In this document: piece by piece, positions 6,212-43,675 of the stretch
How the letters are laid out: each line of letters starts with the position of its first letter
Position numbering within the stretch: position 1 is the first letter of the stretch
Assembly: GCA_032298335.1 (NCBI GenBank)
Contig: GCA_032298335.1_4702.1
DNA length: 43,865 nt
Source: a phage
Direction: 5' to 3' (one strand)
Made by a program: the position numbers and the translations under genes
Notes under the pieces: model-generated
What the model saw: only the letters and a program-made list of their open reading frames with translations
The model's database searches: none
Told to the model about the DNA's origin: nothing

Positions 6212-8200
6212 ATGGCTATTATTCAGAATGTACCGTGTCCTGCCTGTCAAAAGAATGGACATGATATTACTGGCAACCATCTTATGATATTTGAGGATGG
6301 CGCTGGTTACTGTAACCGTGGTCACTTCCATGATAATGGGAAGCCTTATTACCATAAGCCAGAGGGTGGTATCGAGATAACCGAATTGCCTATTACTGGC
6401 AATATCAAATATACACCTTCTCAATTCAAAGAAATGGAGAAGGAAGGGAAGATAAGCGACCCTAAGCTACGCGCCATCGCACTTGGTGGTATGCGTATGA
6501 AAGACCGTTGGGAGGTTATGAATGAGCAAGAAAGGGCAGACCAAGAAGCAGAGTGGAAACTTGATGTTGAATGGTTCCTCACGCTTAAGCGTAAGAACCT
6601 TGTATCCCGTCACATTCGAGGTGACATCGCAGCAATGTACGATGTGCGCGTTGGACACGATGAAGAGGGAAGAGTCAACCGTCACTATTATCCACGATAT
6701 GAAAAGGGTGTGCTTGTTGGAGCAAAATGCCGGACGTTGCCGAAGGATTTTAAGTTCGGACACCTAGGTAAACTCTTTGGTATGCAAGATCTTTTCGGTA
6801 TGAATACTTTGTCTCACGTGTTAGACAAGGGGAGGCGAAAGGATTGCTTGCTTATTGTAGGCGGTGAACTTGATGCACTAGCAGCGCAGCAGATGCTCCT
6901 TGATTCTGCCAAGGGTACTAAGTGGGAAGGACAACCATATCATGTGTGGTCTGTCAACAAGGGCGAGTCTTGCCTTGAAGAGATAGTGCAGAACCGTGAG
7001 CATATCGCCCAATTCAAGAAGATTATATGGGGTTTTGATGGAGATGAGGTAGGGCAGAAGCAGAATCAGCAAGCGGCTCGCCTGTTTCCTGGCAAATCCT
7101 ATATCCTTGAATACCCCTCTGGTTGCAAAGATGCTAACAAGGCATTGATGGCTGGCAAGGCCAAAGAGTTTGTTGATGCATGGTTTAATGCCAAGTCATC
7201 TGATGAAGTCTTTGGTAGCCAGATTAAATCTATCGCATCTCAAAGGGATAAGCTCAAGGCTGCACGTCCAGAGCAAGGACTATCATGGCCTTGGCCTAAG
7301 CTGAACAAGGTAACGCTAGGTATTCGTAAGAACCAACTTATCATTGTAGGCGCAGGCTCTGGTGTAGGTAAGACTGAGTTCCTTCGTGAAGTAGTTAAGC
7401 ACCTCATTGAAGAACACGGTGAATCTGTAGGCATCATTTCTACAGAAGACCCGATGGTCAAGGTGTCCCGTGCTTTTATCGGCAAGTGGATTGATAAGCG
7501 TATTGAGTTACCGCCAACCAACGACCCTAAAGAAGACGGATACCGTGAGGTGTTCGACTACACCGAGGAAGAAGCTAACGCCGCCATTGATTATGTAGCT
7601 GATACAGGTAAGCTGTTTGTAGCTGACCTAGAGGGTGACTATTCGATGGAAAAGGTAGAGCAAACTTGCCTAGAGTTTGAGGCTATGGGCATTTCTAATA
7701 TCATCATTGATAACTTAACGGGGATTAAATTAGATGAGCGTGCTTTTGGTGGGAAGGTTGGTGCACTTGATGAATGCGTCAAGCGGATTGGTACTATCAA
7801 AGACCGACACCCGGTTACTATATTCCTTGTATCACACCTTACACGTCCTCCGGCAAACCGTACCCAACACGAAGAAGGTGGCGAAGTTATCCTTTCTGAC
7901 TTCCGAGGCTCAGGCGCTATCGGATTCTGGGCATCTTACGCCTTGGGGATTGAGCGTAATACAAGAGCTGAAACGCTTGACGAAAGGACTACCACGTACA
8001 TCTCTTGTGTCAAAGACCGCGACCAAGGAATATTTTCCGGTACTCGTATAATGCTTAAAGGTGATATTGCTACTGGTCGATTACGTGAACCAGAGCAAAG
8101 ATCTCGACCGTTTGATACTGGTGCTCCAAAAGAACAAACTGTACCAGAAGAAGTAGTGGATAAAGGAGGATTTATTGCTGACGAAGTTGAAGAGTTTTGA
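6212..8200 (+). CDS. Bifunctional DNA primase/helicase (T7 gp4-like)
   Basis: N-terminal zinc-ribbon CPACQ...CNRGHFH; Walker A GAGSGVGKTEF; helicase motifs IIIDNLTG and VSHLTRPPANRTQHEEGGEVILSDFRGSGAIG paralleling T7 gp4; acidic C-terminus ending EEF. Confidence 0.95.
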   Translation: MAIIQNVPCPACQKNGHDITGNHLMIFEDGAGYCNRGHFHDNGKPYYHKPEGGIEITELPITGNIKYTPSQFKEMEKEGKISDPKLRAIALGGMRMKDRWEVMNEQERADQEAEWKLDVEWFLTLKRKNLVSRHIRGDIAAMYDVRVGHDEEGRVNRHYYPRYEKGVLVGAKCRTLPKDFKFGHLGKLFGMQDLFGMNTLSHVLDKGRRKDCLLIVGGELDALAAQQMLLDSAKGTKWEGQPYHVWSVNKGESCLEEIVQNREHIAQFKKIIWGFDGDEVGQKQNQQAARLFPGKSYILEYPSGCKDANKALMAGKAKEFVDAWFNAKSSDEVFGSQIKSIASQRDKLKAARPEQGLSWPWPKLNKVTLGIRKNQLIIVGAGSGVGKTEFLREVVKHLIEEHGESVGIISTEDPMVKVSRAFIGKWIDKRIELPPTNDPKEDGYREVFDYTEEEANAAIDYVADTGKLFVADLEGDYSMEKVEQTCLEFEAMGISNIIIDNLTGIKLDERAFGGKVGALDECVKRIGTIKDRHPVTIFLVSHLTRPPANRTQHEEGGEVILSDFRGSGAIGFWASYALGIERNTRAETLDERTTTYISCVKDRDQGIFSGTRIMLKGDIATGRLREPEQRSRPFDTGAPKEQTVPEEVVDKGGFIADEVEEF

Positions 8201-9170: not shown

Positions 9171-9188
9171 TGTCTCACACGTGAGACA
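9171..9188. repeat. Palindrome variant TGTCTCACACGTGAGACA (copy 3)
   Basis: 8-bp arms identical to the 16-mer palindrome with an altered central dinucleotide; followed by a T-rich stretch. Confidence 0.8.
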
Positions 9189-9218
9189 GCCTTTCATCAT
9201 ATTGATTGGAGGTGCATT

Positions 9219-9326
9219 ATGCCACGTGATTATGATTCTGATTGGGACTATTATGACTCAATGAATCCAAAACCCGAACGTTCAGATGATTACTACGAAA
9301 CAGAGGCAATGTATGAAGACTATTAA
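9219..9326 (+). CDS. Small acidic Tyr/Asp-rich protein (35 aa)
   Basis: GGAGG ribosome-binding site 8 nt upstream; sequence MPRDYDSDWDYYDSMNPKPERSDDYYETEAMYEDY. Confidence 0.4.
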   Translation: MPRDYDSDWDYYDSMNPKPERSDDYYETEAMYEDY

Positions 9327-9462: not shown

Positions 9463-9516
9463 CACCTAATTCTTTATTAGGACTTGGTTATAGGGCTAAA
9501 TACTTTGGAGCAATCT

Positions 9517-12063
9517 ATGAAATCAATTGATTGGAAGAAGGAAGCGGAAGGGCGCATCCTAGTTATGGACGCCGAGGCGAAAGGTCTACTTGATGCTATA
9601 CGCTATGGTCATCGTGAAGACGTGCATATCATCTGCTGTATGGACCTGTTGACTACAGAGGAGTTTCTCTTCTTCGACCCGTATGAGATGCGTGACCCTG
9701 AAGCAAGAGAACGCCTGAAGGAATGGGAAGGTCATCAAGATGGTGACTTGGTTGATGGTGTTAACTTCCTGAAGCACTGTGAGGCTATTGTGTCGCAGAA
9801 CTTCCTAGGGTATGACGGTCTTCTCTTTGAGAAAGCATTCCCTGATATTTGGAAAGGCTTTAACTATACCGAGAAGCGCGGTAAGGGCAGACTCCGTGCT
9901 GACCTGTGTCCGGTGCGAGTCATGGATACGCTGGTGATGAGTCGCCTGTTAAACCCCGATAGACGCCTTCCTCCGCAAGCATATGCCAAAGGTATGGGTA
10001 ACGTCGCCCCTCACTCAATTGAGGCGCACGGCATCCGTATAGGTCGCTATAAACCGGAGAACGAGGACTGGTCTAAACTAACTGACCACATGGTTCACCG
10101 TGTACGTGAGGACGTGGCGATTGGTCGTGACTTGTTCCTCTGGCTCTTTAACGGGGAATGGATGGAGCACAAACGCCGTGGCGTGAATAAACGCACGGGC
10201 CTAGGCATTGAGACAGCCTTCCACATGGAGTCCATTGTGGCGCTGGAGATGAGCCGTCAGGCCGAGCGCGGGTTCCGTCTGGACATCGACAAGGCTTTGG
10301 CCCGATGCGAAGAATTGGACGCTAAGATTGATGAGACAGTCGCAGCGTTCCGCCCTCACATGCCTATGCGTATCAAGTCTAAACCTTTTAAACCGGAAGA
10401 AAAGAATGAAGTATGCCAACGCGCAAATGAGTATGGAGCTAGCAACAATATACCTACTGTCCTTGACCCCTCACACTTTCTTCATGCCGAGAGACGAGGA
10501 GATCGCAAGACAGTATGGAGTGTCACTACTAAGTCTGGTGATTGGTCGGCTAGTGTCAAGAAAGACTTTCCTCACCTTAGAGGAAACCGTAATGACACGC
10601 CAAGCATCAAGTGGATTGGCGCTTACTCGCCTGTTACTTTCGAAGAGATTCCCTTGGGTAACAGGGATGCAGTTAAGCAAGTGCTCTATGAGTATGGATG
10701 GAAAGGTGTTGAATTTAACGATACCGAGCAAGCTCATCTCGATGAGCACGGAGTGTTACCAAAACCTTGGAGTGGTAAGATAAATGAAAAGTCCCTCACT
10801 TTATGGCAAGAAAGAGCCGCACGTGAAGGTAAAACAGCCCCTGATTGGTGCTTGGGTATCGCTGCATGGTACATACTCGTATCCCGTCGTGGTCAGATAC
10901 TCAACCGTGGTGACGTTGAAGCCTTCAACGAGAAGGGAACGTGGCCCTCGCAGGCTGGTGTACGAAAGTGTCGCGGCCTTGTACCTGTAGCATTCAACAA
11001 GGAGCTAGGAATCAATGCGCAGCAATACTACGAGAGGTACGGATGTTGGCCTACGTCTGACAAAGATGACGGAGAGTGGCGTGTTCCAGCTGTTGCTATT
11101 AGTATTGGCACTTCTACGTTCCGTATGCGTCATCGTAACGTGGTTAATATTCCTGCCCGTGGCTTGTATCCTTTACGTGATTTATTCATAGCAGGGAAAG
11201 GCAAGCTAATCCTTGGTTGTGACGGTGCAGGTCTTGAACTGCGTGTCCTGTCTCACTTCATGAATGACCCTGAGTACCAAGAGATTGTACTGCACGGTGA
11301 TATTCATACGCATAACCAGATGAAGGCTGGTCTTCCTAAGCGTGATATGGCGAAGACGTTTATATACGCCTTCCTCTATGGTTCTGGTATAGCCAACCTT
11401 GCAGCAGTCTGCGGTGTTACTGAGGAAGAAATGAAGGAAGTTGTGGCAAGATTCGAGATTGAACTACCGTCTCTTGCACGTCTTCGTGAGAATGTTATCG
11501 CACAAGGTAACAAGTTTGGCTACCTGCAAGCACTTGATGGGCATTGGGGTCGCATCCGCATGTCTGGTGGTGAACTTAAAGAGCACACGATGCTTAACGT
11601 ATTACTCCAGATGACTGGCTCTTTGTGTATGAAATATGCATTAGTCAAGGCATTTGCAGTAATGCGCAAGGAAGGTGTAGCTTTGGATGCTATGGGAAAT
11701 CCTTGTGGTGTGGCTAACGTGCATGATGAAATCCAGATGGAAGTTCCTGAAGAGGAGGTCTTGTATCTTAACTACGACCTACCTTTCACCTTAGATGGGT
11801 TCGAAACAGAGAAGGCTGCTGTGAAAGCAGTTTTCGATGCAGAGGAGAAACGTGTTCATGTGGATTCTGAAGGACGTATGTGGTCTGCTGCAAACCTAGT
11901 TAGCGTTGATGCTGATGCTGGTGTATTGCATTGCCAGCGCCGTTATCACCGTGCAGGTCATATCATTGCCGACGCCATGACTTGGGCAGGGCAGTATCTG
12001 AAGATGCGTTGCCCGATGGCAGGAGAATATAAGATTGGCGCAAGCTGGAAGGAAACACACTGA
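9517..12063 (+). CDS. DNA polymerase, family A (T7 gp5-like)
   Basis: Motifs DGAGLELRVLSHFM, GDIHTHNQ and AKTFIYAFLYGSG match T7 DNA polymerase motifs A/B; ATG at 9517 with a ribosome-binding site (the ORF track begins at an upstream TTG at 9484). Confidence 0.95.
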   Translation: MKSIDWKKEAEGRILVMDAEAKGLLDAIRYGHREDVHIICCMDLLTTEEFLFFDPYEMRDPEARERLKEWEGHQDGDLVDGVNFLKHCEAIVSQNFLGYDGLLFEKAFPDIWKGFNYTEKRGKGRLRADLCPVRVMDTLVMSRLLNPDRRLPPQAYAKGMGNVAPHSIEAHGIRIGRYKPENEDWSKLTDHMVHRVREDVAIGRDLFLWLFNGEWMEHKRRGVNKRTGLGIETAFHMESIVALEMSRQAERGFRLDIDKALARCEELDAKIDETVAAFRPHMPMRIKSKPFKPEEKNEVCQRANEYGASNNIPTVLDPSHFLHAERRGDRKTVWSVTTKSGDWSASVKKDFPHLRGNRNDTPSIKWIGAYSPVTFEEIPLGNRDAVKQVLYEYGWKGVEFNDTEQAHLDEHGVLPKPWSGKINEKSLTLWQERAAREGKTAPDWCLGIAAWYILVSRRGQILNRGDVEAFNEKGTWPSQAGVRKCRGLVPVAFNKELGINAQQYYERYGCWPTSDKDDGEWRVPAVAISIGTSTFRMRHRNVVNIPARGLYPLRDLFIAGKGKLILGCDGAGLELRVLSHFMNDPEYQEIVLHGDIHTHNQMKAGLPKRDMAKTFIYAFLYGSGIANLAAVCGVTEEEMKEVVARFEIELPSLARLRENVIAQGNKFGYLQALDGHWGRIRMSGGELKEHTMLNVLLQMTGSLCMKYALVKAFAVMRKEGVALDAMGNPCGVANVHDEIQMEVPEEEVLYLNYDLPFTLDGFETEKAAVKAVFDAEEKRVHVDSEGRMWSAANLVSVDADAGVLHCQRRYHRAGHIIADAMTWAGQYLKMRCPMAGEYKIGASWKETH

Positions 12064-12179
12064 TGGATAGGCTTGACATTATTTGCCTATTCTTCACTCT
12101 CTTTCTTACACTCCTTATGCTTGCTTGTTATGGGAGTATGAGACTAGATATACCTGATGAAGAAGAGGGTTACGACTAA
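12063..12179 (+). CDS. Mini membrane protein (38 aa)
   Basis: ATG overlaps the DNA polymerase stop (TGATG); one hydrophobic helix then an acidic tail ending YD. Confidence 0.4.
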   Translation: MDRLDIICLFFTLFLTLLMLACYGSMRLDIPDEEEGYD

Positions 12180-12277
12180 TGCAAACTGCTTTTATTATTC
12201 TTGGTATCATATTATTTATGGTAGTACTCTGGGCCTTCTCTGGCATTGACCCGGATTGTGATGGTAACTACGACTGA
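12179..12277 (+). CDS. Mini membrane protein (32 aa)
   Basis: ATG overlaps the upstream stop (TAATG); one hydrophobic helix then an acidic tail ending YD; same architecture as the preceding peptide. Confidence 0.4.
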   Translation: MQTAFIILGIILFMVVLWAFSGIDPDCDGNYD

Positions 12278-12345
12278 GTTATACTCAAGGTCACTTACGA
12301 GTGGCCTTTATGGATAACTTATCCCTACTTATTTTGTCTAACATG

Positions 12346-12366
12346 ATTTACTGGACACTATAGAAG
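12346..12366 (+). promoter_or_regulatory. Phage RNA polymerase promoter (ATTTACTGGACACTATAGAAG)
   Basis: Exact match to the consensus defined by the other copies in this window. Confidence 0.85.
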
Positions 12367-12432: not shown

Positions 12433-12810
12433 ATGTCTATGGTAACTACTCTGGTATTTGTAGCTCAATACTTTCGTGGTCTGGCTAATAAGTTCAAGTC
12501 CAAGGCTATCAAAGCTATTGAGTCTCGCATCGAGGCAGTACAGGCAGAGCAAGTTAAAGTTGAAGAACATCGTAGTTCTAAAATGATTGACCGCCATAAC
12601 CGCTACTATGCATCTCGTGATGACCTTAATGCACGCCAAGTCAAAGAGGTTGAAGAGATGCTGGCACGTCACCAGCAAGAGCGCGACAGTCTGAAAGCTG
12701 AATTTGAAGAGAACAAGGCATCCATCGCCCTTGTACACCAATCTGCATCTGACAGTCTGAAGAAAGAGATTGTTATGCTTGAAATCGAACTGGACAACCT
12801 GACCAAATAA
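12433..12810 (+). CDS. Hypothetical coiled-coil protein (125 aa)
   Basis: AGGAG ribosome-binding site; charged heptad-like sequence. Confidence 0.6.
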   Translation: MSMVTTLVFVAQYFRGLANKFKSKAIKAIESRIEAVQAEQVKVEEHRSSKMIDRHNRYYASRDDLNARQVKEVEEMLARHQQERDSLKAEFEENKASIALVHQSASDSLKKEIVMLEIELDNLTK

Positions 12811-13276: not shown

Positions 13277-14083
13277 ATGGCACGTGGTGATTTTGATTTT
13301 GGTGCTTCCGTATCTAAAGCTGAAGGTAAAGTCTTTAAGAACCCAGAAGTAGGTGATCATGAAGCAGTAATCTCTGGCATCATTCATGTTGGTTCCTTCC
13401 AAGATATCTTTAAGAAAGGTAATACCACTGAAGTTAAGAAGCCAGCAAACTTTGTTCTTGTTAAGATTATCCTGATGGGTGACGACGATAAGAATGAAGA
13501 TGATTCTCGCATGGAACAATGGATGGCTGTGCCTCTGAAGTCTGGTGATAAGGCAACACTGACTAAGTTCCTGAATGCAGTTGACCCTAAAGAGTTGCTG
13601 GGTGGCTTCGATGATTTTATCGGTGAATGTCTGACTGCAACTATGGTTGGCTCTGGCGACAAGAATGATGATGGTACTTTCAAGTATGTTAACTGGAAAG
13701 GCTTTGGCGGTATGCCTGATAAGTTGAAGAAGCTTGTACTGGCTCAGGTAGAAGAGGAAGGTCTGTCTATGACAGGTCATATCACCTTCGACAAGCTGAC
13801 CAAAGAAATCCTTGATGACATTCCTGCTAACTGGGTGCGTCAATACTTCCTTAATGAAACACCTCGTGGTAAGAACCTGTCTGTTGCTGGTTCTCACGTA
13901 GAAGCAATCATTAAAGCTGCTCGTGAAGAAGACCCAGAGTGGAAGAAAGCCAAGAAGAAAGATGACGAGGATGCTACTCCAGCTAATCGTAAATCTCTGG
14001 ATACTGGTGAGTCTGTTCCACAGGAAGTACCTGAAGCAGAAGATACTCCTGCACCGGAGATGGATGAGGACGCGGAATATTAA
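13277..14083 (+). CDS. Acidic-tailed protein, candidate ssDNA-binding protein (268 aa)
   Basis: High-expression codon usage; acidic C-terminal tail ending DEDAEY; comparable in size and position class to T7 gp2.5. The functional call is an inference. Confidence 0.6.
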   Translation: MARGDFDFGASVSKAEGKVFKNPEVGDHEAVISGIIHVGSFQDIFKKGNTTEVKKPANFVLVKIILMGDDDKNEDDSRMEQWMAVPLKSGDKATLTKFLNAVDPKELLGGFDDFIGECLTATMVGSGDKNDDGTFKYVNWKGFGGMPDKLKKLVLAQVEEEGLSMTGHITFDKLTKEILDDIPANWVRQYFLNETPRGKNLSVAGSHVEAIIKAAREEDPEWKKAKKKDDEDATPANRKSLDTGESVPQEVPEAEDTPAPEMDEDAEY

Positions 14084-14415: not shown

Positions 14416-14790
14416 ATGTTCAAGATTGAAACTATCGTAAACCGTGTTGTTAAAGGTGCTGCTCTGGTATCCGTTGAGTCTTTCATTATCGTCGATGAAG
14501 CTGATCAACTGGTAGCTGGTACTAAGGCTTATGATACTCGTGAAGAAGCTCAGGCTAAGATTGACAGCATGGGTAACTTCGCTGCGGGTCTGGAGTTCGC
14601 TCGTGCTTGCTTCCCTGAGCAGGCTGACAAAGCTCAGATTGGTAAGGCTAATATCGTAGCTGAATATCTGGATTGGATTGCTGCTGGTAAGCCGGTGAAA
14701 GAAGTTAAAGCTGCGGAAGAAGTTGAAGCTCCGGCAGTAGAAGAAGTAGCTGCACCGGAAGTTCCGGTAAGCGAAGAAGAAGAGTTTTAA
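14416..14790 (+). CDS. Small highly acidic protein with C-terminal EEEEF tail (124 aa)
   Basis: Strong ribosome-binding site; codon usage like the capsid gene; net charge about -13; own promoter upstream and terminator-like hairpin downstream. Confidence 0.7.
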   Translation: MFKIETIVNRVVKGAALVSVESFIIVDEADQLVAGTKAYDTREEAQAKIDSMGNFAAGLEFARACFPEQADKAQIGKANIVAEYLDWIAAGKPVKEVKAAEEVEAPAVEEVAAPEVPVSEEEEF

Positions 14791-35181: not shown

Positions 35182-35376
35182 ATGATTAACTCAGAACCGG
35201 TAGATAGTGGTGTGAAGCTTGCGCCACCTGCATTAGTCTCAGGTGGGTACTTCCTCGGTATCAGTTGGAATGATTGGGTTCTTATAGCTACATTCATTTA
35301 TACTGTATTACAAATTGGCGATTGGTTTTATGTAAAATACAAAGCTAGGAGAGATAAGCGTGAGCGTACACAATAA
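35182..35376 (+). CDS. Holin (T7 gp17.5-like)
   Basis: 64 aa; LGISWNDWVLIATFIYTVLQIG parallels T7 holin FGLSLNEWFYVAAIAYTVVQIG; one transmembrane segment and a basic C-terminus. Confidence 0.7.
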   Translation: MINSEPVDSGVKLAPPALVSGGYFLGISWNDWVLIATFIYTVLQIGDWFYVKYKARRDKRERTQ

Positions 35377-35659
35377 ACATGCAGCTACAGAGGATGAGGT
35401 TGGCATTCTGCATGGTGCTATTACCAAAATCTTCAATAAGAAAGCACAGGCAATACTGGACACTATAGAAGAAGACCCTGATGCAGCATTACATTTAGTG
35501 TCTGGTAAGGATATTGGTGCGATGTGTAAGTGGGTTCTTGATAACGGCATTACCGCCACACCTGCTGCACAGCAGGAAGAGTCCAAGTTATCTAAGCGCC
35601 TCAAGGCTATCCGAGAGGCATCCAGTGGTAAGATAATTCAATTCACTAAGGAGGATTGA
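35360..35659 (+). CDS. Terminase small subunit (gp18-like)
   Basis: 99 aa ORF immediately upstream of, and coupled to, the large terminase gene; GTG start with an AGGAGAG ribosome-binding site. Confidence 0.6.
   Translation: MSVHNKHAATEDEVGILHGAITKIFNKKAQAILDTIEEDPDAALHLVSGKDIGAMCKWVLDNGITATPAAQQEESKLSKRLKAIREASSGKIIQFTKED
35451..35471 (+). promoter_or_regulatory. Internal phage promoter inside the small terminase gene
   Basis: CAATACTGGACACTATAGAAG: the 18-nt core is identical to the consensus, the upstream 3 nt differ. Confidence 0.55.
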
Positions 35660-37557
35660 TGGCTAAGGCAAGAGAATCACAAGCGGAGGCTCTTGCCAGA
35701 TGGGAGATGCTACAGGAGTTACAGCAGACCTTTCCTTTCACAGCGGAAGGTTTGCTTCTCTTTGCAGATACAGTTATTCATAACTTAATTGCAGGCAACC
35801 CTCATCTGATTCGTATGCAGGCGGATATCTTGAAGTTCCTATTTTACGGACACAAGTACCGCCTCATCGAAGCGCCTCGTGGTATCGCTAAGACAACACT
35901 ATCAGCAATCTATACGGTATTCCGTATTATTCATGAACCGCATAAGCGTATCATGGTTGTGTCCCAAAACGCCAAGCGAGCAGAGGAAATCGCAGGTTGG
36001 GTAGTTAAAATCTTCCGTGGCTTAGACTTTCTTGAGTTTATGCTGCCGGATATCTACGCTGGGGACCGTGCATCCGTTAAGGCGTTTGAGATTCATTACA
36101 CCCTACGTGGTAGTGATAAGTCTCCTTCTGTATCCTGTTACTCAATCCAAGCAAGTATGCAGGGTGCTCGTGCTGATATTATTCTAGCGGATGACGTAGA
36201 GTCGATGCAGAATGCTCGTACGGCAGCGGGCCGTGCCTTGCTTGAGGAACTGACTAAGGAGTTTGAATCTATCAACCAGTTTGGGGATATCATTTACCTT
36301 GGTACACCTCAGAACGTAAACTCTATCTACAACAACCTACCTGCTCGTGGTTACTCTGTTCGTATCTGGACTGCGCGTTACCCTTCAGTAGAGCAAGAGC
36401 AATGTTATGGCGACTTCCTTGCACCTATGATTGTGCAGAATATGAAGGACAACCCAGCACTGCGCTCAGGGTACGGGTTGGATGGTAATAGTGGTGCACC
36501 TTGTGCCCCTGAAATGTATGATGATGAAGTCCTGATTGAGAAGGAAATCTCTCAGGGTGCTGCTAAGTTCCAGCTTCAGTTCATGCTTAACACTCGCATG
36601 ATGGATGCTGACAGATACCCATTACGCCTGAACAATCTAATCTTCACCTCGTTTGGTACAGAGGAAGTCCCTGTGATGCCTACGTGGAGTAATGATTCCA
36701 TAAACATCATTGGTGATGCACCTAAGTATGGTAACAAGCCTACGGATTTCATGTACAGACCTGTAGCTCGCCCATACGAATGGGGTACTGTCTCCCGCAA
36801 GATTATGTATATTGACCCTGCGGGTGGCGGTAAGAATGGGGATGAGACGGGTGTGGCTATCGTATTCCTGCACGGCACATTCATTTACGTGTATCAGTGC
36901 TTCGGTGTGCCGGGTGGATACCGCGAATCGTCCCTGAATCGCATTGTGCAGGCCGCAAAGCAGGCGGGTGTTAAAGAGGTATTCATTGAGAAGAACTTTG
37001 GTCATGGCGCGTTTGAGGCGGTAATTAAGCCGTACTTTGAACGAGAGTGGCCTGTAACGCTGGAAGAGGATTACGCCACCGGACAGAAAGAGTTGCGTAT
37101 CATTGAGACGCTGGAGCCGCTCATGGCAGCCCATAGGCTTATCTTCAATGCAGAGATGGTGAAGTCAGACTTTGAGTCGGTACAGCACTATCCGCTTGAA
37201 CTACGCATGTCCTACAGTCTTTTCAATCAAATGTCGAACATAACGATTGAGAAGAACAGCCTCCGGCACGATGACCGCCTAGACGCCCTGTATGGCGCTA
37301 TACGGCAATTAACTTCTCAGATAGACTATGACGAGGTTACACGGATTAATCGCCTCAGAGCGCAGGAGATGCGAGATTACATCCATGCTATGAACACACC
37401 TCATCTACGCAGGGCAATGCTATATGGGGATTACGGTACTGAGCGAAGAGTGACCAACACTTCCGTAGCGATGCAGCAGCGAGTTTACGGGCAGAACTAC
37501 CGAAATAAATCGGCAAGCAGAAATACACTTTCTGCAAGGATTTCAAGGACTTATTAA
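35659..37557 (+). CDS. Terminase large subunit (gp19-like)
   Basis: 632 aa; ATPase N-terminal half and nuclease C-terminal half expected from size and position; ATG overlaps the small-subunit stop. Confidence 0.9.
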   Translation: MAKARESQAEALARWEMLQELQQTFPFTAEGLLLFADTVIHNLIAGNPHLIRMQADILKFLFYGHKYRLIEAPRGIAKTTLSAIYTVFRIIHEPHKRIMVVSQNAKRAEEIAGWVVKIFRGLDFLEFMLPDIYAGDRASVKAFEIHYTLRGSDKSPSVSCYSIQASMQGARADIILADDVESMQNARTAAGRALLEELTKEFESINQFGDIIYLGTPQNVNSIYNNLPARGYSVRIWTARYPSVEQEQCYGDFLAPMIVQNMKDNPALRSGYGLDGNSGAPCAPEMYDDEVLIEKEISQGAAKFQLQFMLNTRMMDADRYPLRLNNLIFTSFGTEEVPVMPTWSNDSINIIGDAPKYGNKPTDFMYRPVARPYEWGTVSRKIMYIDPAGGGKNGDETGVAIVFLHGTFIYVYQCFGVPGGYRESSLNRIVQAAKQAGVKEVFIEKNFGHGAFEAVIKPYFEREWPVTLEEDYATGQKELRIIETLEPLMAAHRLIFNAEMVKSDFESVQHYPLELRMSYSLFNQMSNITIEKNSLRHDDRLDALYGAIRQLTSQIDYDEVTRINRLRAQEMRDYIHAMNTPHLRRAMLYGDYGTERRVTNTSVAMQQRVYGQNYRNKSASRNTLSARISRTY

Positions 37558-37576
37558 TTACTGGACACTATAGAAG
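37556..37576 (+). promoter_or_regulatory. Phage RNA polymerase promoter after the terminase gene
   Basis: AATTACTGGACACTATAGAAG; overlaps the terminase stop. Confidence 0.85.
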
Positions 37577-37649
37577 GAAGGCCCAGATAATAAGAGAAAT
37601 AATAGGTAATATATAGGTTAACCTAGGTTATATAGGTATGCCTTAGTAT

Positions 37650-37669
37650 AGGTGTACTCCTGTACACCT
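37650..37669. repeat. Hairpin-forming inverted repeat AGGTGTAC-TCCT-GTACACCT
   Basis: 8-bp perfect stem with a 4-nt loop in the AT-rich leader after the promoter, followed by a tandem TACCTTAC x2. Confidence 0.7.
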
Positions 37670-37721
37670 TATTCATTACTACCTTACTACCTTACTATAT
37701 TTACATAATAGGAGAGAGACA

Positions 37722-37997
37722 ATGGCTAATGATTATAGTAGTCAACCATTAACAGGTAAGTCTAAGAGAAAGCAGGTACAACCTGTAAGTGAAGAACTAA
37801 TGCTTCCGGTAATCAAAAAAGAGGAAGCTAGTAAGAAAAGCAATGTCATTAATGATGCCACCAAATCAGGTAAACAGAAAGGGGCCATGGTGTGCCTTGA
37901 AGTGGAAGGTGTATTGAAGATTGCTATAGCGGTTGATGGCAAAGAAGATTCAGCGTGGAAGTTAGTAACAAGCGGACCAGCTGTTAACCCAGTTTAA
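37722..37997 (+). CDS. Small protein, paralog A (91 aa)
   Basis: Shares SGKQKGAMV ... IA(I/V)A ... SW core with the next ORF; good ribosome-binding site. Confidence 0.6.
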   Translation: MANDYSSQPLTGKSKRKQVQPVSEELMLPVIKKEEASKKSNVINDATKSGKQKGAMVCLEVEGVLKIAIAVDGKEDSAWKLVTSGPAVNPV

Positions 37998-38015
37998 GAT
38001 AAGGAGGAAGATTAC

Positions 38016-38309
38016 ATGGCTAAATATGGTACTACAGGTTCTGTTACTGGTCAGGCTTTTCGAGTAAAAGCAGTACAAACTATTGCAACGGCAATCCCTG
38101 TGCCTGTTGTTAAAGAAGCAGACCTTAAGAGTAAAGATCACCCTATCAACATCAAACACCTGTCAGGTAAGCAGAAAGGCGCAATGGTTGCTGTTGAGAG
38201 AGATGGCACAATCGTGCATATTGCTGTTGCACGTGGTAGTGAACCAACAGACTCTTGGGATGTAACTGGTATGGAAGAGGCCGCTGTCACTCCAGCAGGT
38301 AGAGATTAA
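38016..38309 (+). CDS. Small protein, paralog B (97 aa)
   Basis: Tandem paralog of 37722-37997; good ribosome-binding site. Confidence 0.6.
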   Translation: MAKYGTTGSVTGQAFRVKAVQTIATAIPVPVVKEADLKSKDHPINIKHLSGKQKGAMVAVERDGTIVHIAVARGSEPTDSWDVTGMEEAAVTPAGRD

Positions 38310-38653
38310 TGCTTAACAAATACTTCAAGCGTAAAGAGTTCGCTTGCCGTTGTGGGTGCGGTACATCCACTGTTGATGCTGAATTACTACAGGTAGTCAC
38401 AGATGTGCGTGAGCACTTTGGTTCTCCTGTAGTTATCACTTCGGGGCACCGCTGTGCTAAGCACAATGCTAATGTAGGAGGAGCTAAGAACTCCATGCAT
38501 CTTACTGGTAAGGCTGCTGACATTAAGGTGTCTGGTGTTGGCCCAATGGAGGTACGTGCATACCTCTGCAATAAATACCATGATAAGTACGGTATTGGTG
38601 CTTATCCTACTTTTACCCATATCGACGTTAGAGATAACAAAGCAAGATGGTAA
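38309..38653 (+). CDS. Endolysin, peptidase M15-type cell-wall peptidase
   Basis: 114 aa; KEFACRCGCG ... SGHRC ... H ... GKAADI ... H pattern typical of zinc D-Ala-D-Ala carboxypeptidase-like phage endolysins. Confidence 0.8.
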   Translation: MLNKYFKRKEFACRCGCGTSTVDAELLQVVTDVREHFGSPVVITSGHRCAKHNANVGGAKNSMHLTGKAADIKVSGVGPMEVRAYLCNKYHDKYGIGAYPTFTHIDVRDNKARW

Positions 38654-38761
38654 GATGCATTGAATGGTGTGAACGCATGGTTGCTAAGGCTTCAGAGGAA
38701 GGTAACTATGAAGATTGGCAGAACTACTCAACTTTATTAGCACAATGGAAAGGGAGGTGCA

Positions 38762-38910
38762 ATGAAAAAGCTGTTCAAATCTAAGAAGGTTGTAGGTGCA
38801 CTAGTTGCATTGGCAATTGCTCTTGTTTCTGTAGGTCTTGGTGTAGACCTTGGCTCTGGCACGGAATCCTCTGTGACAGATGTGGTCTGCCAAGTGATCA
38901 CCTGTGAATA
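38762..38910 (+). CDS. Small membrane protein (49 aa), possible second holin or antiholin
   Basis: GGGAGG ribosome-binding site; basic N-terminus then one hydrophobic helix VVGALVALAIALVSVGLGV. Confidence 0.45.
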
Positions 38911-39125
38911 AGTTTCTAGAAGTTCTGGCAGGTCTTATTGGCCTGCTTGTCTCTGCTAAGAAGAAACAAGAAGAGAAGGAGGCACAAAGTGAAGCGAATC
39001 ATGTTAGTGACAACCCTTCTGATTGGTTCGCTGACCACTTCCGGGTGTCAGCAGGCGTTACCAGAGAAAGCAATGGTGAAACCTCTGAGGCCGACGCTGA
39101 CGGAAGTTTACGAGGTAGACGATAA
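38904..39125 (+). CDS. Inner-membrane spanin-like protein (Rz-like, 73 aa)
   Basis: GTG start; N-terminal transmembrane helix FLEVLAGLIGLLVSA then a charged periplasmic part; overlaps the lipoprotein ORF. Confidence 0.45.
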   Translation: MNKFLEVLAGLIGLLVSAKKKQEEKEAQSEANHVSDNPSDWFADHFRVSAGVTRESNGETSEADADGSLRGRR

Positions 39126-39198
39126 GGTCTGCTTTAGTAAGCCTGACGCTACAAAATTAGGTTTGTATATTCTTTCGCTGGAACGCGGATATAATTAA
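38989..39198 (+). CDS. Outer-membrane lipoprotein spanin (Rz1-like)
   Basis: Signal peptide MKRIMLVTTLLIGSLTTSGC with a lipobox Cys; embedded in and extending past the Rz-like frame; AAGGAGG ribosome-binding site before a GTG start. Confidence 0.6.
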   Translation: MKRIMLVTTLLIGSLTTSGCQQALPEKAMVKPLRPTLTEVYEVDDKVCFSKPDATKLGLYILSLERGYN

Positions 39199-43213: not shown

Positions 43214-43675
43214 ATGGAAGTTTGGAGGCCTATTGCTGGTATACCAGATTACATGGTTTCCTCCTTTGGTCGTGTTAGATCTCATAAAAGAGGTAAGGTT
43301 ACTATACTAAACCCTCCGCACGACAAAGGGGGTTATCGTAATGTTGTGCTACGTGTTAATGGTGAAAAGATAAATCGCAAGGTACATAGGCTTGTGGCAG
43401 AGGCTTTCTTACCTAATCCTCACGGTTTACCTCAAGTAAATCACAAGGATGAAGTAAGAGACAATAATCATGTAAGTAATCTGGAGTGGTGTGATTGTGC
43501 ATACAACGTAGATTACTCTCAAGCAGCTACTTATACTGTGATGTGCCCTAAAGGTAATATCTTAGTAGTAAGGAATGTGGCTAAGTTTTGTAGGGAAAAC
43601 GGATTAAGCAGTGGTTCTTTTACAGATATGCTTAAGGGGAGACGTAAGCAACATAAGGGTTATCGCTTAGTGTAA
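43214..43675 (+). CDS. HNH homing endonuclease (second copy)
   Basis: HRLVAEAF ... NP ... PQVNHKD ... NLEW HNH motif; C-terminal FCRENGL ... KG(R)RKQHKG block shared with the 8175-8663 protein; AT-rich. Confidence 0.85.
   Translation: MEVWRPIAGIPDYMVSSFGRVRSHKRGKVTILNPPHDKGGYRNVVLRVNGEKINRKVHRLVAEAFLPNPHGLPQVNHKDEVRDNNHVSNLEWCDCAYNVDYSQAATYTVMCPKGNILVVRNVAKFCRENGLSSGSFTDMLKGRRKQHKGYRLV

Follow-up and report, generated by a model that had tools for sequence, protein, structure and literature searches.

Two small genes behind the DNA polymerase gene

The DNA analysed here (the window) is a phage contig of 43,865 nucleotides (GCA_032298335.1_4702.1, NCBI GenBank assembly GCA_032298335.1) in which two short open reading frames (ORFs), gp13.5 and gp14, lie directly behind the DNA polymerase gene (pol). 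A 551-bp query spanning the two ORFs matched 91 phage records, with identity reaching 100% in the best of them, and affiliates the window with Vectrevirus (K1E/K1-5 group; subfamily Molineuxvirinae). The matches were Vectrevirus genomes (K1E, K1-5, VEc3, LL11, and others) and Salmonella phages of the SP6 group (Zindervirus). An earlier note, made from the letters of the window, had described two coupled ORFs of 38 and 32 amino acids (aa) after pol, overlapping at TGATG and TAATG, each encoding a single hydrophobic helix and then an acidic tail that ends in YD. Coordinates and translations confirm the ORFs. The overlapping layout is retained in relatives whatever gene precedes it, the architecture agrees with the apolar stretches, tail charges, and modelled helices given below, and both ORFs are kept with a synonymous bias in related phages, one of the two points on which the note had let its proposal stand or fall. 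The genes and their start signals are as follows.

9484–12063, plus strand: DNA polymerase gene (K1E gp13 homologue), an 848/859-aa ORF
12049–12053, plus strand: AAGGA, Shine-Dalgarno (SD)-like sequence for gp13.5, 9 nt before the ATG, within the K-E codons (AAG GAA) of pol; -5.7 kcal/mol
12061–12065, plus strand: TGATG, pol stop over gp13.5 start; TGA (12061–12063) and ATG (12063–12065) share an A
12063–12179, plus strand: gp13.5 coding sequence, 38 aa, MDRLDIICLFFTLFLTLLMLACYGSMRLDIPDEEEGYD, PHROG 15860
12165–12169, plus strand: GAGGG, SD-like sequence for gp14, 9 nt before the ATG, within the E-E-G codons of the gp13.5 tail; -6.3 kcal/mol
12177–12181, plus strand: TAATG, gp13.5 stop over gp14 start; TAA (12177–12179) and ATG (12179–12181) share an A
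12179–12277, plus strand: gp14 coding sequence, 32 aa, MQTAFIILGIILFMVVLWAFSGIDPDCDGNYD, PHROG 4539, homologue of SP6 gene 14/15; its stop is the TGA at 12275–12277

In K1E the two ORFs are annotated as genes 13.5 and 14, and the 32-aa ORF of SP6 is numbered gene 14 in one SP6 record and gene 15 in the other. These genes of K1E, K1-5 (13.5/14), and SP6 are the same genes in the same place with the same stop/start overlaps, and nothing essential differs. Identity to K1E is 84% for gp13.5 and 88% for gp14, and gp14 is 88% identical to its SP6 counterpart. The profile match of gp13.5 to PHROG 15860 (E = 9.8e-28) runs from residues 1–38 on positions 1–38 of 38; gp14 matches PHROG 4539 (E = 2e-16), and its synteny is confirmed by the same place behind pol or gp13.5. 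In these phages the proteins are listed only as hypothetical or of unknown function, and the two PHROG families are likewise of unknown function. Searches of Pfam, NCBIfam, and PADLOC profiles gave no match at E ≤ 1 apart from noise, and PDB sequences gave none at E ≤ 10. The accessory-gene screens examined in the literature did not have the gp13.5 and gp14 sequences among those covered. These are already catalogued genes of a familiar class, the small phage accessory membrane peptides, and the finding by itself would not surprise a specialist. What is new is the evidence of selection, the concentration of conservation in the tails, the modular presence and absence in four states with junctions exact to the base, and the likeness of the gp14 tail to a calcium loop.

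The placement of the two genes is most simply explained by stop/start coupling of their translation. Across relatives, the overlap reads TGATG, TAATG, or TAGTG (GTG start) behind pol, and TAATG or TGATG behind gp13.5. In NTNC80A, an HNH homing-endonuclease gene is inserted between pol and gp13.5 and overlaps gp13.5 by 14 nt, so that the overlap layout is retained behind three different upstream genes (pol, gp13.5, and the inserted endonuclease). A stop/start overlap was shown experimentally to give translational coupling in a T7-like phage, at trx-cve of Syn5 (bioRxiv 10.1101/2025.10.05.680603). Like the genes described here, cve is a small non-core gene of the replication region and is patchily distributed; it is stop/start-coupled, as gp13.5 and gp14 are predicted to be, and it was shown to affect fitness. 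It differs in its unrelated sequence and upstream partner (trx), and the text of that paper mentions no transmembrane segment (bioRxiv 10.1101/2025.10.05.680603). By duplex energy with the anti-SD sequence, the gp13.5 and gp14 SD sequences rank in the top 19% and top 13%, respectively, among all ATG and GTG codons of this strand.

Cores of the SP6-type phage promoter (ACACTATAGAAG, one mismatch allowed) occur 10 times in the window, against 0.28 expected. The scan found none between 8655 and 12355, and gp13.5 and gp14 are therefore most simply the 3′ end of the polymerase transcript. Other readings of the DNA across the junctions were rejected. A 30-aa ORF in an alternative frame (12157–12249) has a weak SD (-2.7 kcal/mol) and an unconstrained frame, a minus-strand ORF (12115–12246) falls in the out-of-frame omega range of 0.44–1.36, and a frameshift fusion of pol and gp13.5 finds no slippery heptamer at ...GGAAGGAAACACACTGA; gp13.5 also functions behind the HNH gene.

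Selection and distribution among related phages

Twelve distinct nucleotide versions of each ORF were gathered from phage records, IMG/VR, and metagenome contigs, and changes were counted along a minimum spanning tree. For gp13.5 there were 32 synonymous and 34 non-synonymous changes (expected synonymous fraction 0.20; P = 1.6e-7; omega ~0.26), and for gp14 there were 24 and 26 (expected fraction 0.21; P = 1.6e-5; omega ~0.28). Omega was 0.44–1.36 in the other two frames of the genes. Pairwise Nei-Gojobori ratios of non-synonymous to synonymous change (pN/pS) were 0.15 for gp13.5 and 0.21 for gp14 in frame, and 0.65–1.18 out of frame. Constraint was unevenly spread within the peptides. The C-terminal halves had 17 synonymous versus 8 non-synonymous changes in gp13.5 and 8 versus 4 in gp14, and the N-terminal hydrophobic halves had 15 versus 26 and 16 versus 22, mostly swaps of one hydrophobic residue for another. 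Both ORFs remain intact in relatives with diverged DNA. Because the synonymous bias is found in the annotated frame only and the tails are conserved, gp13.5 and gp14 are genuine protein-coding genes under purifying selection and not chance ORFs, with the strongest constraint in the tails.

The phage database held 213 records with a related polymerase C-terminus, 93 of them at least 90% identical. With tblastn, gp13.5 was found in 68 phage records (74%–100% identity), none of them from Salmonella phages; gp14 was found in 69, including nine Salmonella phage records with SP6 among them. Thus gp14 is the older and wider of the two (Zindervirus and Vectrevirus), and gp13.5 is confined to Vectrevirus-like phages. 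Besides the arrangement with both genes, gp14 occurs alone and directly behind pol in SP6, UAB_Phi78, Kenya-K30, mutPK1A2, and one IMG/VR contig, gp13.5 occurs alone in CrRp3, NTNC80A, and Raoultella phage P3a, and several contigs among the relatives have neither. In ULINTec6 (MZ997840.1; locus 838–960), gp13.5 is frameshifted in a TTCTTTCTT run beside an intact gp14, and neither mini-ORF is annotated. An IMG/VR contig (3300045988_003055, 848–945) was not counted as a loss of gp14: its GTG-start gp14 carries several indels of homopolymer type that are possibly sequencing errors. More distant relatives (contigs and phages of Proteus, Klebsiella, Erwinia, and Pectobacterium) have neither gene, and behind their pol lie HNH endonucleases, a nucleotidyltransferase-like ORF, or nothing.

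When relatives are ordered by the final 600 nt of pol, the four states of presence and absence are interleaved among lineages less than 10% apart, and gp13.5 and gp14 have therefore been gained or lost repeatedly. The junctions are exact to the base. With both genes present they read ...CACACTGATGGAT..., ...TACGACTAATGCAA..., and ...TACGACTGAGTTATAC; with gp14 only, ...CACACTAATGCAA; with gp13.5 only, ...TACGACTGAGTTATAC; and with neither, ...CACACTGAGTTATAC. ACT-(G/A)A closes each unit, its final A being the first base of the feature that follows. Such precision would be expected from deletion or insertion by recombination between short repeats (ACACT/TACGACT), a process that also offers a DNA-level reason for both peptides to end in YD. 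From these distributions and junctions, gp13.5 and gp14 are separate, individually dispensable accessory genes, gained and lost independently and precisely.

The two genes were also sought outside this group of phages. Degenerate DNA patterns for both tails matched only SP6-like contigs in IMG/VR, and the gp13.5 tail pattern matched two Vectrevirus contigs and nothing else in the JGI metagenomes. Across 185,579 species genomes, the gp14 tail pattern had zero matches and the gp13.5 pattern one; this single GTDB match, in a Methanospirillum metagenome-assembled genome, has no hydrophobic segment and was set aside as chance. An exhaustive phmmer search with gp14 against 1.84 billion cluster representatives gave a single 32-aa cluster (94% identity). 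In the searches made, gp13.5 and gp14 appear restricted to Vectrevirus/Zindervirus-like phages, with no relatives detectable elsewhere.

Peptide architecture and possible roles

Both peptides have the same simple plan, an apolar stretch of 21 residues, none of them charged or strongly polar (gp13.5 residues 6–26, gp14 residues 3–23) followed by an acidic tail.

12078–12140, plus strand: gp13.5 apolar helix, residues 6–26; residues 6–17 vary and L18–S25 (LMLACYGS) are invariant
12141–12176, plus strand: gp13.5 acidic tail, residues 27–38, RLDIPDEEEGYD; I30–D38 (IPDEEEGYD) invariant in 10 variants
12185–12247, plus strand: gp14 apolar helix, residues 3–23 (apolar stretch, AlphaFold2 model)
12248–12274, plus strand: gp14 tail, D-P-D-C-D-G-N-Y-D, matching xDxDxDGxxD

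Single-sequence AlphaFold2 modelled one helix in each peptide (gp13.5 residues 3–28, gp14 residues 2–20; predicted local distance difference test, pLDDT, ~90), followed by a low-confidence coil tail. Mean Kyte-Doolittle hydrophobicity of the helices is 2.9–3.1 over 15 residues. The last 14 residues carry a net charge of -5 in gp13.5 and -4 in gp14, and both peptides end in YD. A location in the inner membrane is plausible on these predictions. The tails carry 4–6 acidic residues, and lysine and arginine are absent from gp14 and from the NTNC80A variant of gp13.5 (MSTSD...). By the positive-inside rule, basic residues stay on the cytoplasmic side, and acidic tails of the Pf3 and M13 coat proteins are translocated with the help of the proton motive force and YidC. 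Because basic residues are few or absent, this rule and the Pf3/M13 precedent lead us to expect the acidic tail outside (N-in/C-out).

The tail of gp14, I-D-P-D-C-D-G-N-Y-D, fits the loop xDxDxDGxxD, and D24, D26, D28, G29, and D32 are invariant in nine variants. Over the whole peptide the invariant residues are W18, F20-S21-G22, D24-P25-D26, and D28-G29-N30-Y31-D32; variation in the tail is confined to the x positions (I/V/T at residue 23, C/Y at residue 27). Among the 23.6 k ORF residues of this genome, DxDxDG occurs in the gp14 tail alone. The Dx[DN]xDG loop, in which positions 1, 3, and 5 are D, position 6 is G, and position 9 is [DSTN], binds calcium in at least 12 unrelated structural contexts, with a strong bias to periplasmic, surface, or secreted proteins (PMC3123361), and PepX carries a described xDxDxDGxxD loop (PMC10536834). 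The gp14 tail resembles these calcium loops (EF-hand, Excalibur, thrombospondin type 3 repeats, and PepX) in that its ligand positions are invariant and only x positions vary, and the expected extracytoplasmic setting fits (PMC3123361, PMC10536834). It differs in being a 9-residue C-terminal tail without a flanking fold, and is a candidate cation-binding loop.

The best explanation overall, to which we give a probability of roughly 55%, is that gp13.5 and gp14 encode accessory micro-proteins of the inner membrane, independent of each other, made in the middle period through translational coupling, and with periplasmic acidic tails that act as effectors. They would be transcribed together with pol from a middle-period promoter at ~8655 and translated by termination and reinitiation at the one-base stop/start overlaps, aided by the moderate SD sequences in the upstream codons. 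Each peptide would enter the inner membrane as a single helix, independently of Sec owing to its few or absent basic residues, with its acidic tail moved across into the periplasm (N-in/C-out). Specific action would belong to the tail and not to the helix, the tail serving as a minimal xDxDxDGxxD divalent-cation loop in gp14 and as the PDEEEGYD tail in gp13.5. It may bind Ca2+ or Mg2+, a basic surface of a conserved enterobacterial component of the envelope or membrane, or both. Binding could then alter the envelope of the infected cell during replication, for example by superinfection exclusion or by blocking a membrane-bound host factor; these two are our leading guesses at function. Within this explanation, a core in which the peptides are real, membrane-located, and independent accessory micro-proteins is very probable, and the details of topology and cation binding are tentative and somewhat doubtful.

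Small single-pass regulators with periplasmic C-terminal tails exist in bacteria, as in MgrB and SafA, which act on PhoQ. The likeness lies in size (~30–65 aa), in the single helix, and in a short tail for specific binding, predicted to be extracytoplasmic in gp13.5 and gp14; there is no sequence similarity, and basic residues fix the topology of MgrB and SafA, whereas gp14 has none. Among phages, T4 Imm, HK97 gp15, T5 Llp, and phi80 Cor are small membrane or lipoprotein exclusion factors. They too are accessory, dispensable, small, patchily distributed, and located in the envelope, the last being a prediction for gp13.5 and gp14. They differ in being larger (~60–180 aa) and without homology, and for gp13.5 and gp14 exclusion is only a possible role.

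Even in well-studied therapeutic phages, much of the gene content that lacks an explanation consists of small accessory ORFs, and relatives of K1E, K1-5, and SP6 serve as agents against Salmonella and K1 E. coli. The analysis makes two "hypothetical proteins" tractable: their conserved acidic tails of 9–12 residues can be synthesised, and natural pairs of phages with and without each gene exist. As genes, gp13.5 and gp14 are independent modules that swap in and out behind the polymerase gene with base-pair precision. The gp14 peptide would be among the smallest candidate membrane-anchored cation-binding loops, and superinfection exclusion or inhibition of a host factor, if true, would be relevant to the design of phage cocktails.

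Several points weigh against this explanation. The SD sequences of both genes are only moderate, and their frequent natural loss means that any benefit is conditional. The near-absence of basic residues leaves the orientation not securely predictable. As for cation binding, shuffling the 11-residue gp14 tail yields the motif in 3.6% of shuffles, the gp14 DxDxDG lacks the acidic ligand at position 12 (the peptide ends at position 9) and has Tyr in place of Ile/Leu/Val at position 8, the Pfam EF-hand, Excalibur, and TSP3 models give no match to gp14, and gp13.5 has no DxDxDG motif. The selection estimates come from 12 distinct nucleotide sequences per gene, all from closely related phages, and a search of the accessible literature found no experimental data on translation, membrane insertion, topology, cation binding, or phenotype for either gene.

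An unlikely alternative is that the two ORFs encode precursors of exported peptides. Cleavage of gp13.5 at LMLA|C would leave a lipidated peptide of 17 residues, CYGSMRLDIPDEEEGYD, and cleavage of gp14 at AFS|G a periplasmic peptide of 11. The gp13.5 sequence fits the PROSITE PS00013 lipobox, with Cys22 in the allowed range and R3 within the first seven residues, and Cys22 and its surroundings are invariant (Cys8 varies, C/Y). A variable hydrophobic part joined to a conserved C-terminal part is also what a signal peptide with its mature peptide would give. However, PS00013 matches 5/257 ORFs of this genome, mostly in non-coding frames, and the strict lipobox [LVI][ASTVI][GAS]C fails (M-L-A-C). 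The n-region MDRLD is net acidic, with no basic residue at all in the NTNC80A variant, and an apolar stretch of 21 residues has the length of a membrane anchor and not of a signal h-region. In gp14 the basic n-region is missing and the Cys is Tyr in SP6. The comparison with Rz1-type o-spanins and phage lipoproteins follows the same lines: gp13.5 shares a Cys after a hydrophobic stretch and a loose PROSITE lipobox, but not the strict lipobox, and its acidic n-region and anchor-length helix differ. The phage has its true o-spanin, with a canonical TSGC lipobox, elsewhere (38998–39198). On the strict lipobox, the acidic n-region, and this real o-spanin, a lipoprotein or o-spanin role for gp13.5 was rejected as the leading interpretation.

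The earlier note had also proposed a duplicated micro-protein pair acting at the inner membrane, in which gp13.5 and gp14 would be paralogues from a tandem duplication that work together, for example as a hetero-oligomer. This part of the note did not hold up, and we regard the idea as improbable. The genes are adjacent and share an architecture, and both end P-D-x4-Y-D-stop at an equal distance from the C-terminus, with the common DNA string TACGACT-RA. Composition-preserving shuffles of the tails reach the observed C-terminally anchored score in 0.7%–3.5% of trials (P ~0.007–0.035, a post hoc test), and hhalign picks the same eight residues (PDEEEGYD/PDCDGNYD). That profile-profile alignment, however, covers only these last eight residues, with E = 0.039 and a probability of 1.3%, BLASTP gave no alignment of gp13.5 with gp14, and the helices are without similarity. 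Either gene stands alone in many phages, ULINTec6 keeps an intact gp14 beside its broken gp13.5, and the distribution of gp14 is wider and older. The short shared ending P-D-x4-Y-D-COOH appears real, with homology not demonstrable from these comparisons. A shared target may explain it, or descent from an ancient common ancestor, or a short repeated junction (TACGACT-RA) at which units recombine.

Equally improbable is an action of the helices themselves, as membrane-perturbing peptides of a toxin-, pinholin-, or antiholin-like kind that depolarise or permeabilise the inner membrane for host shut-off or lysis timing, with the tails setting topology only. The single helices are very hydrophobic and would be expressed before lysis, and many phage and host peptides of this size perturb membranes. 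Selection, however, is strongest on the tails and not on the helices, which argues for specific recognition over bulk membrane damage, and the genes lie in the replication module and not in a lysis module. The lysis genes of this phage are dispersed, and a complete set is found elsewhere in the window: a holin at 35182–35376 (PHROG 920), an endolysin at 38309–38653 (PHROG 894), and overlapping Rz-like (PHROG 8971) spanins, with the i-spanin at 38904–39125 (GTG start, 73 aa) and the o-spanin at 38998–39198 (from M21 of an 86-aa ORF, lipobox TSGC). A holin or spanin role was rejected for gp13.5 and gp14, which match no lysis PHROGs, the full set lying at 35182–39198. Just before the spanin genes is a 49-aa hydrophobic ORF (MKKLFKSKKVVGALVALAIALVSVGLGV..., 38762–38911), outside the larger ORFs treated as genes.

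In T7, the acidic C-terminal tails of gp2.5 and gp4, which end in Phe, dock replisome proteins, as does that of E. coli SSB. If the gp13.5 and gp14 tails were cytoplasmic (N-out/C-in), they might mimic such C-termini, bind the phage polymerase or its partners, and tether or modulate replication at the membrane, a reading that we consider very unlikely. The two genes abut pol, and their translation would be coupled to it. Three proteins of this phage have acidic tails with an aromatic last residue, similar to those by which T7 proteins dock on the polymerase: ...DEVEEF in the helicase-primase, ...MDEDAEY in a protein of 268 aa, and ...SEEEEF in one of 124 aa. In gp13.5 and gp14, by contrast, the aromatic residue comes last but one. 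An acidic tail that lacks basic residues beside it is expected to be exported and not retained, and the DxDxDG motif is typical of extracytoplasmic proteins (PMC3123361). Moreover, gp13.5 works equally well behind the HNH endonuclease gene, and both genes are missing from many phages with near-identical polymerases. The related idea of a minimal and optional membrane-attachment module of the T7-like replisome, made in step with the polymerase through coupling, is to us just as far from probable. In the replication region, acidic tails with a C-terminal aromatic residue were seen at 6212–8200 (helicase-primase), 13277–14083 (268 aa), 14416–14790 (124 aa), and 9219–9326 (a 35-aa acidic ORF, ...AMYEDY).

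The hairpin, the insertion hot spot, and neighbouring genes

Downstream of gp14, an RNA hairpin and a phage promoter close the region.

12276–12320, plus strand: conserved RNA hairpin that starts inside the gp14 stop codon; core 9-bp GC-rich stem at 12287–12308, outer stem GAGUUAU/AUAACUU
12346–12366, plus strand: SP6-type phage promoter (ATTTACTGGACACTATAGAAG), one of 10 sites, core at 12355–12366; starts the next transcription unit (gp15)

The hairpin has a folding free energy of -16.9 kcal/mol (z = -4.0) and is followed by only three U's. It is identical in relatives, where it begins in the stop codon of the last ORF, whether pol, gp13.5, or gp14, and forms the fixed right border of the variable cassette. 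In UAB_Phi78 and Kenya-K30 it is absent, and the SP6 promoter comes directly at that place. No Rfam family was matched. The hairpin could be a processing site or a weak terminator for the phage polymerase. This position, starting in the stop codon of the final ORF present, would also fit a role for the act of translation instead of the peptides, with ribosomes past the pol stop controlling processing or termination at the hairpin or protecting the 3′ end of the mRNA, but that is the least credible of the readings, given the strong purifying selection on the amino-acid sequences, the tails especially, and given relatives with neither ORF, in which the pol stop abuts the hairpin alike and the mini-ORFs are unneeded for the geometry.

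The stretch between the pol stop and the next promoter (12310–12345 in the window) is an insertion hot spot in nine of the relatives. Among the inserts are an ORF of 194 aa resembling a nucleotidyltransferase (GGAVRD...PKDYD), an ORF of 86 aa, and, immediately after pol, HNH homing endonucleases. Of the beginning of such an insert, the window retains just a short piece (ATGGATAACTTATCC...). An HNH endonuclease gene (43214–43675; PHROG 59/959) is also present close to the right-hand genome end. Taken with the HNH genes inserted after pol in related phages, it shows that homing endonucleases move actively among phages of this group.

The gene after the promoter, gp15 (125 aa, 12433–12810), has a hydrophobic N-terminus, and the remainder is charged and possibly coiled-coil. 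PHROG 7450 and RefSeq give it the name "polysaccharide chain length determinant protein"; no Pfam match supports this, and the name looks like an over-annotation. Homologues of gp15 are recognisable in many relatives, distant ones included, yet not at every locus. At the other end of the region, the true start of pol is probably the ATG near 9517 and not the TTG at 9484 of the mechanical ORF, because GGAG precedes that ATG and the 848-aa product annotated in K1E would result; the TTG has no SD (+1.7 kcal/mol). Upstream of pol, outside the larger ORFs treated as genes, is a small hydrophobic ORF of 27 aa (MRQPFIILIGGALCHVIMILIGTIMTQ, GTG start) at 9181–9264. Farther away, adjacent ORFs of 91 and 97 aa (37722–38309) both match the N-terminal ~100 positions of PHROG 2725 ("acetyl-CoA acetyltransferase", 238 positions) and look like a tandem pair of truncated paralogues.

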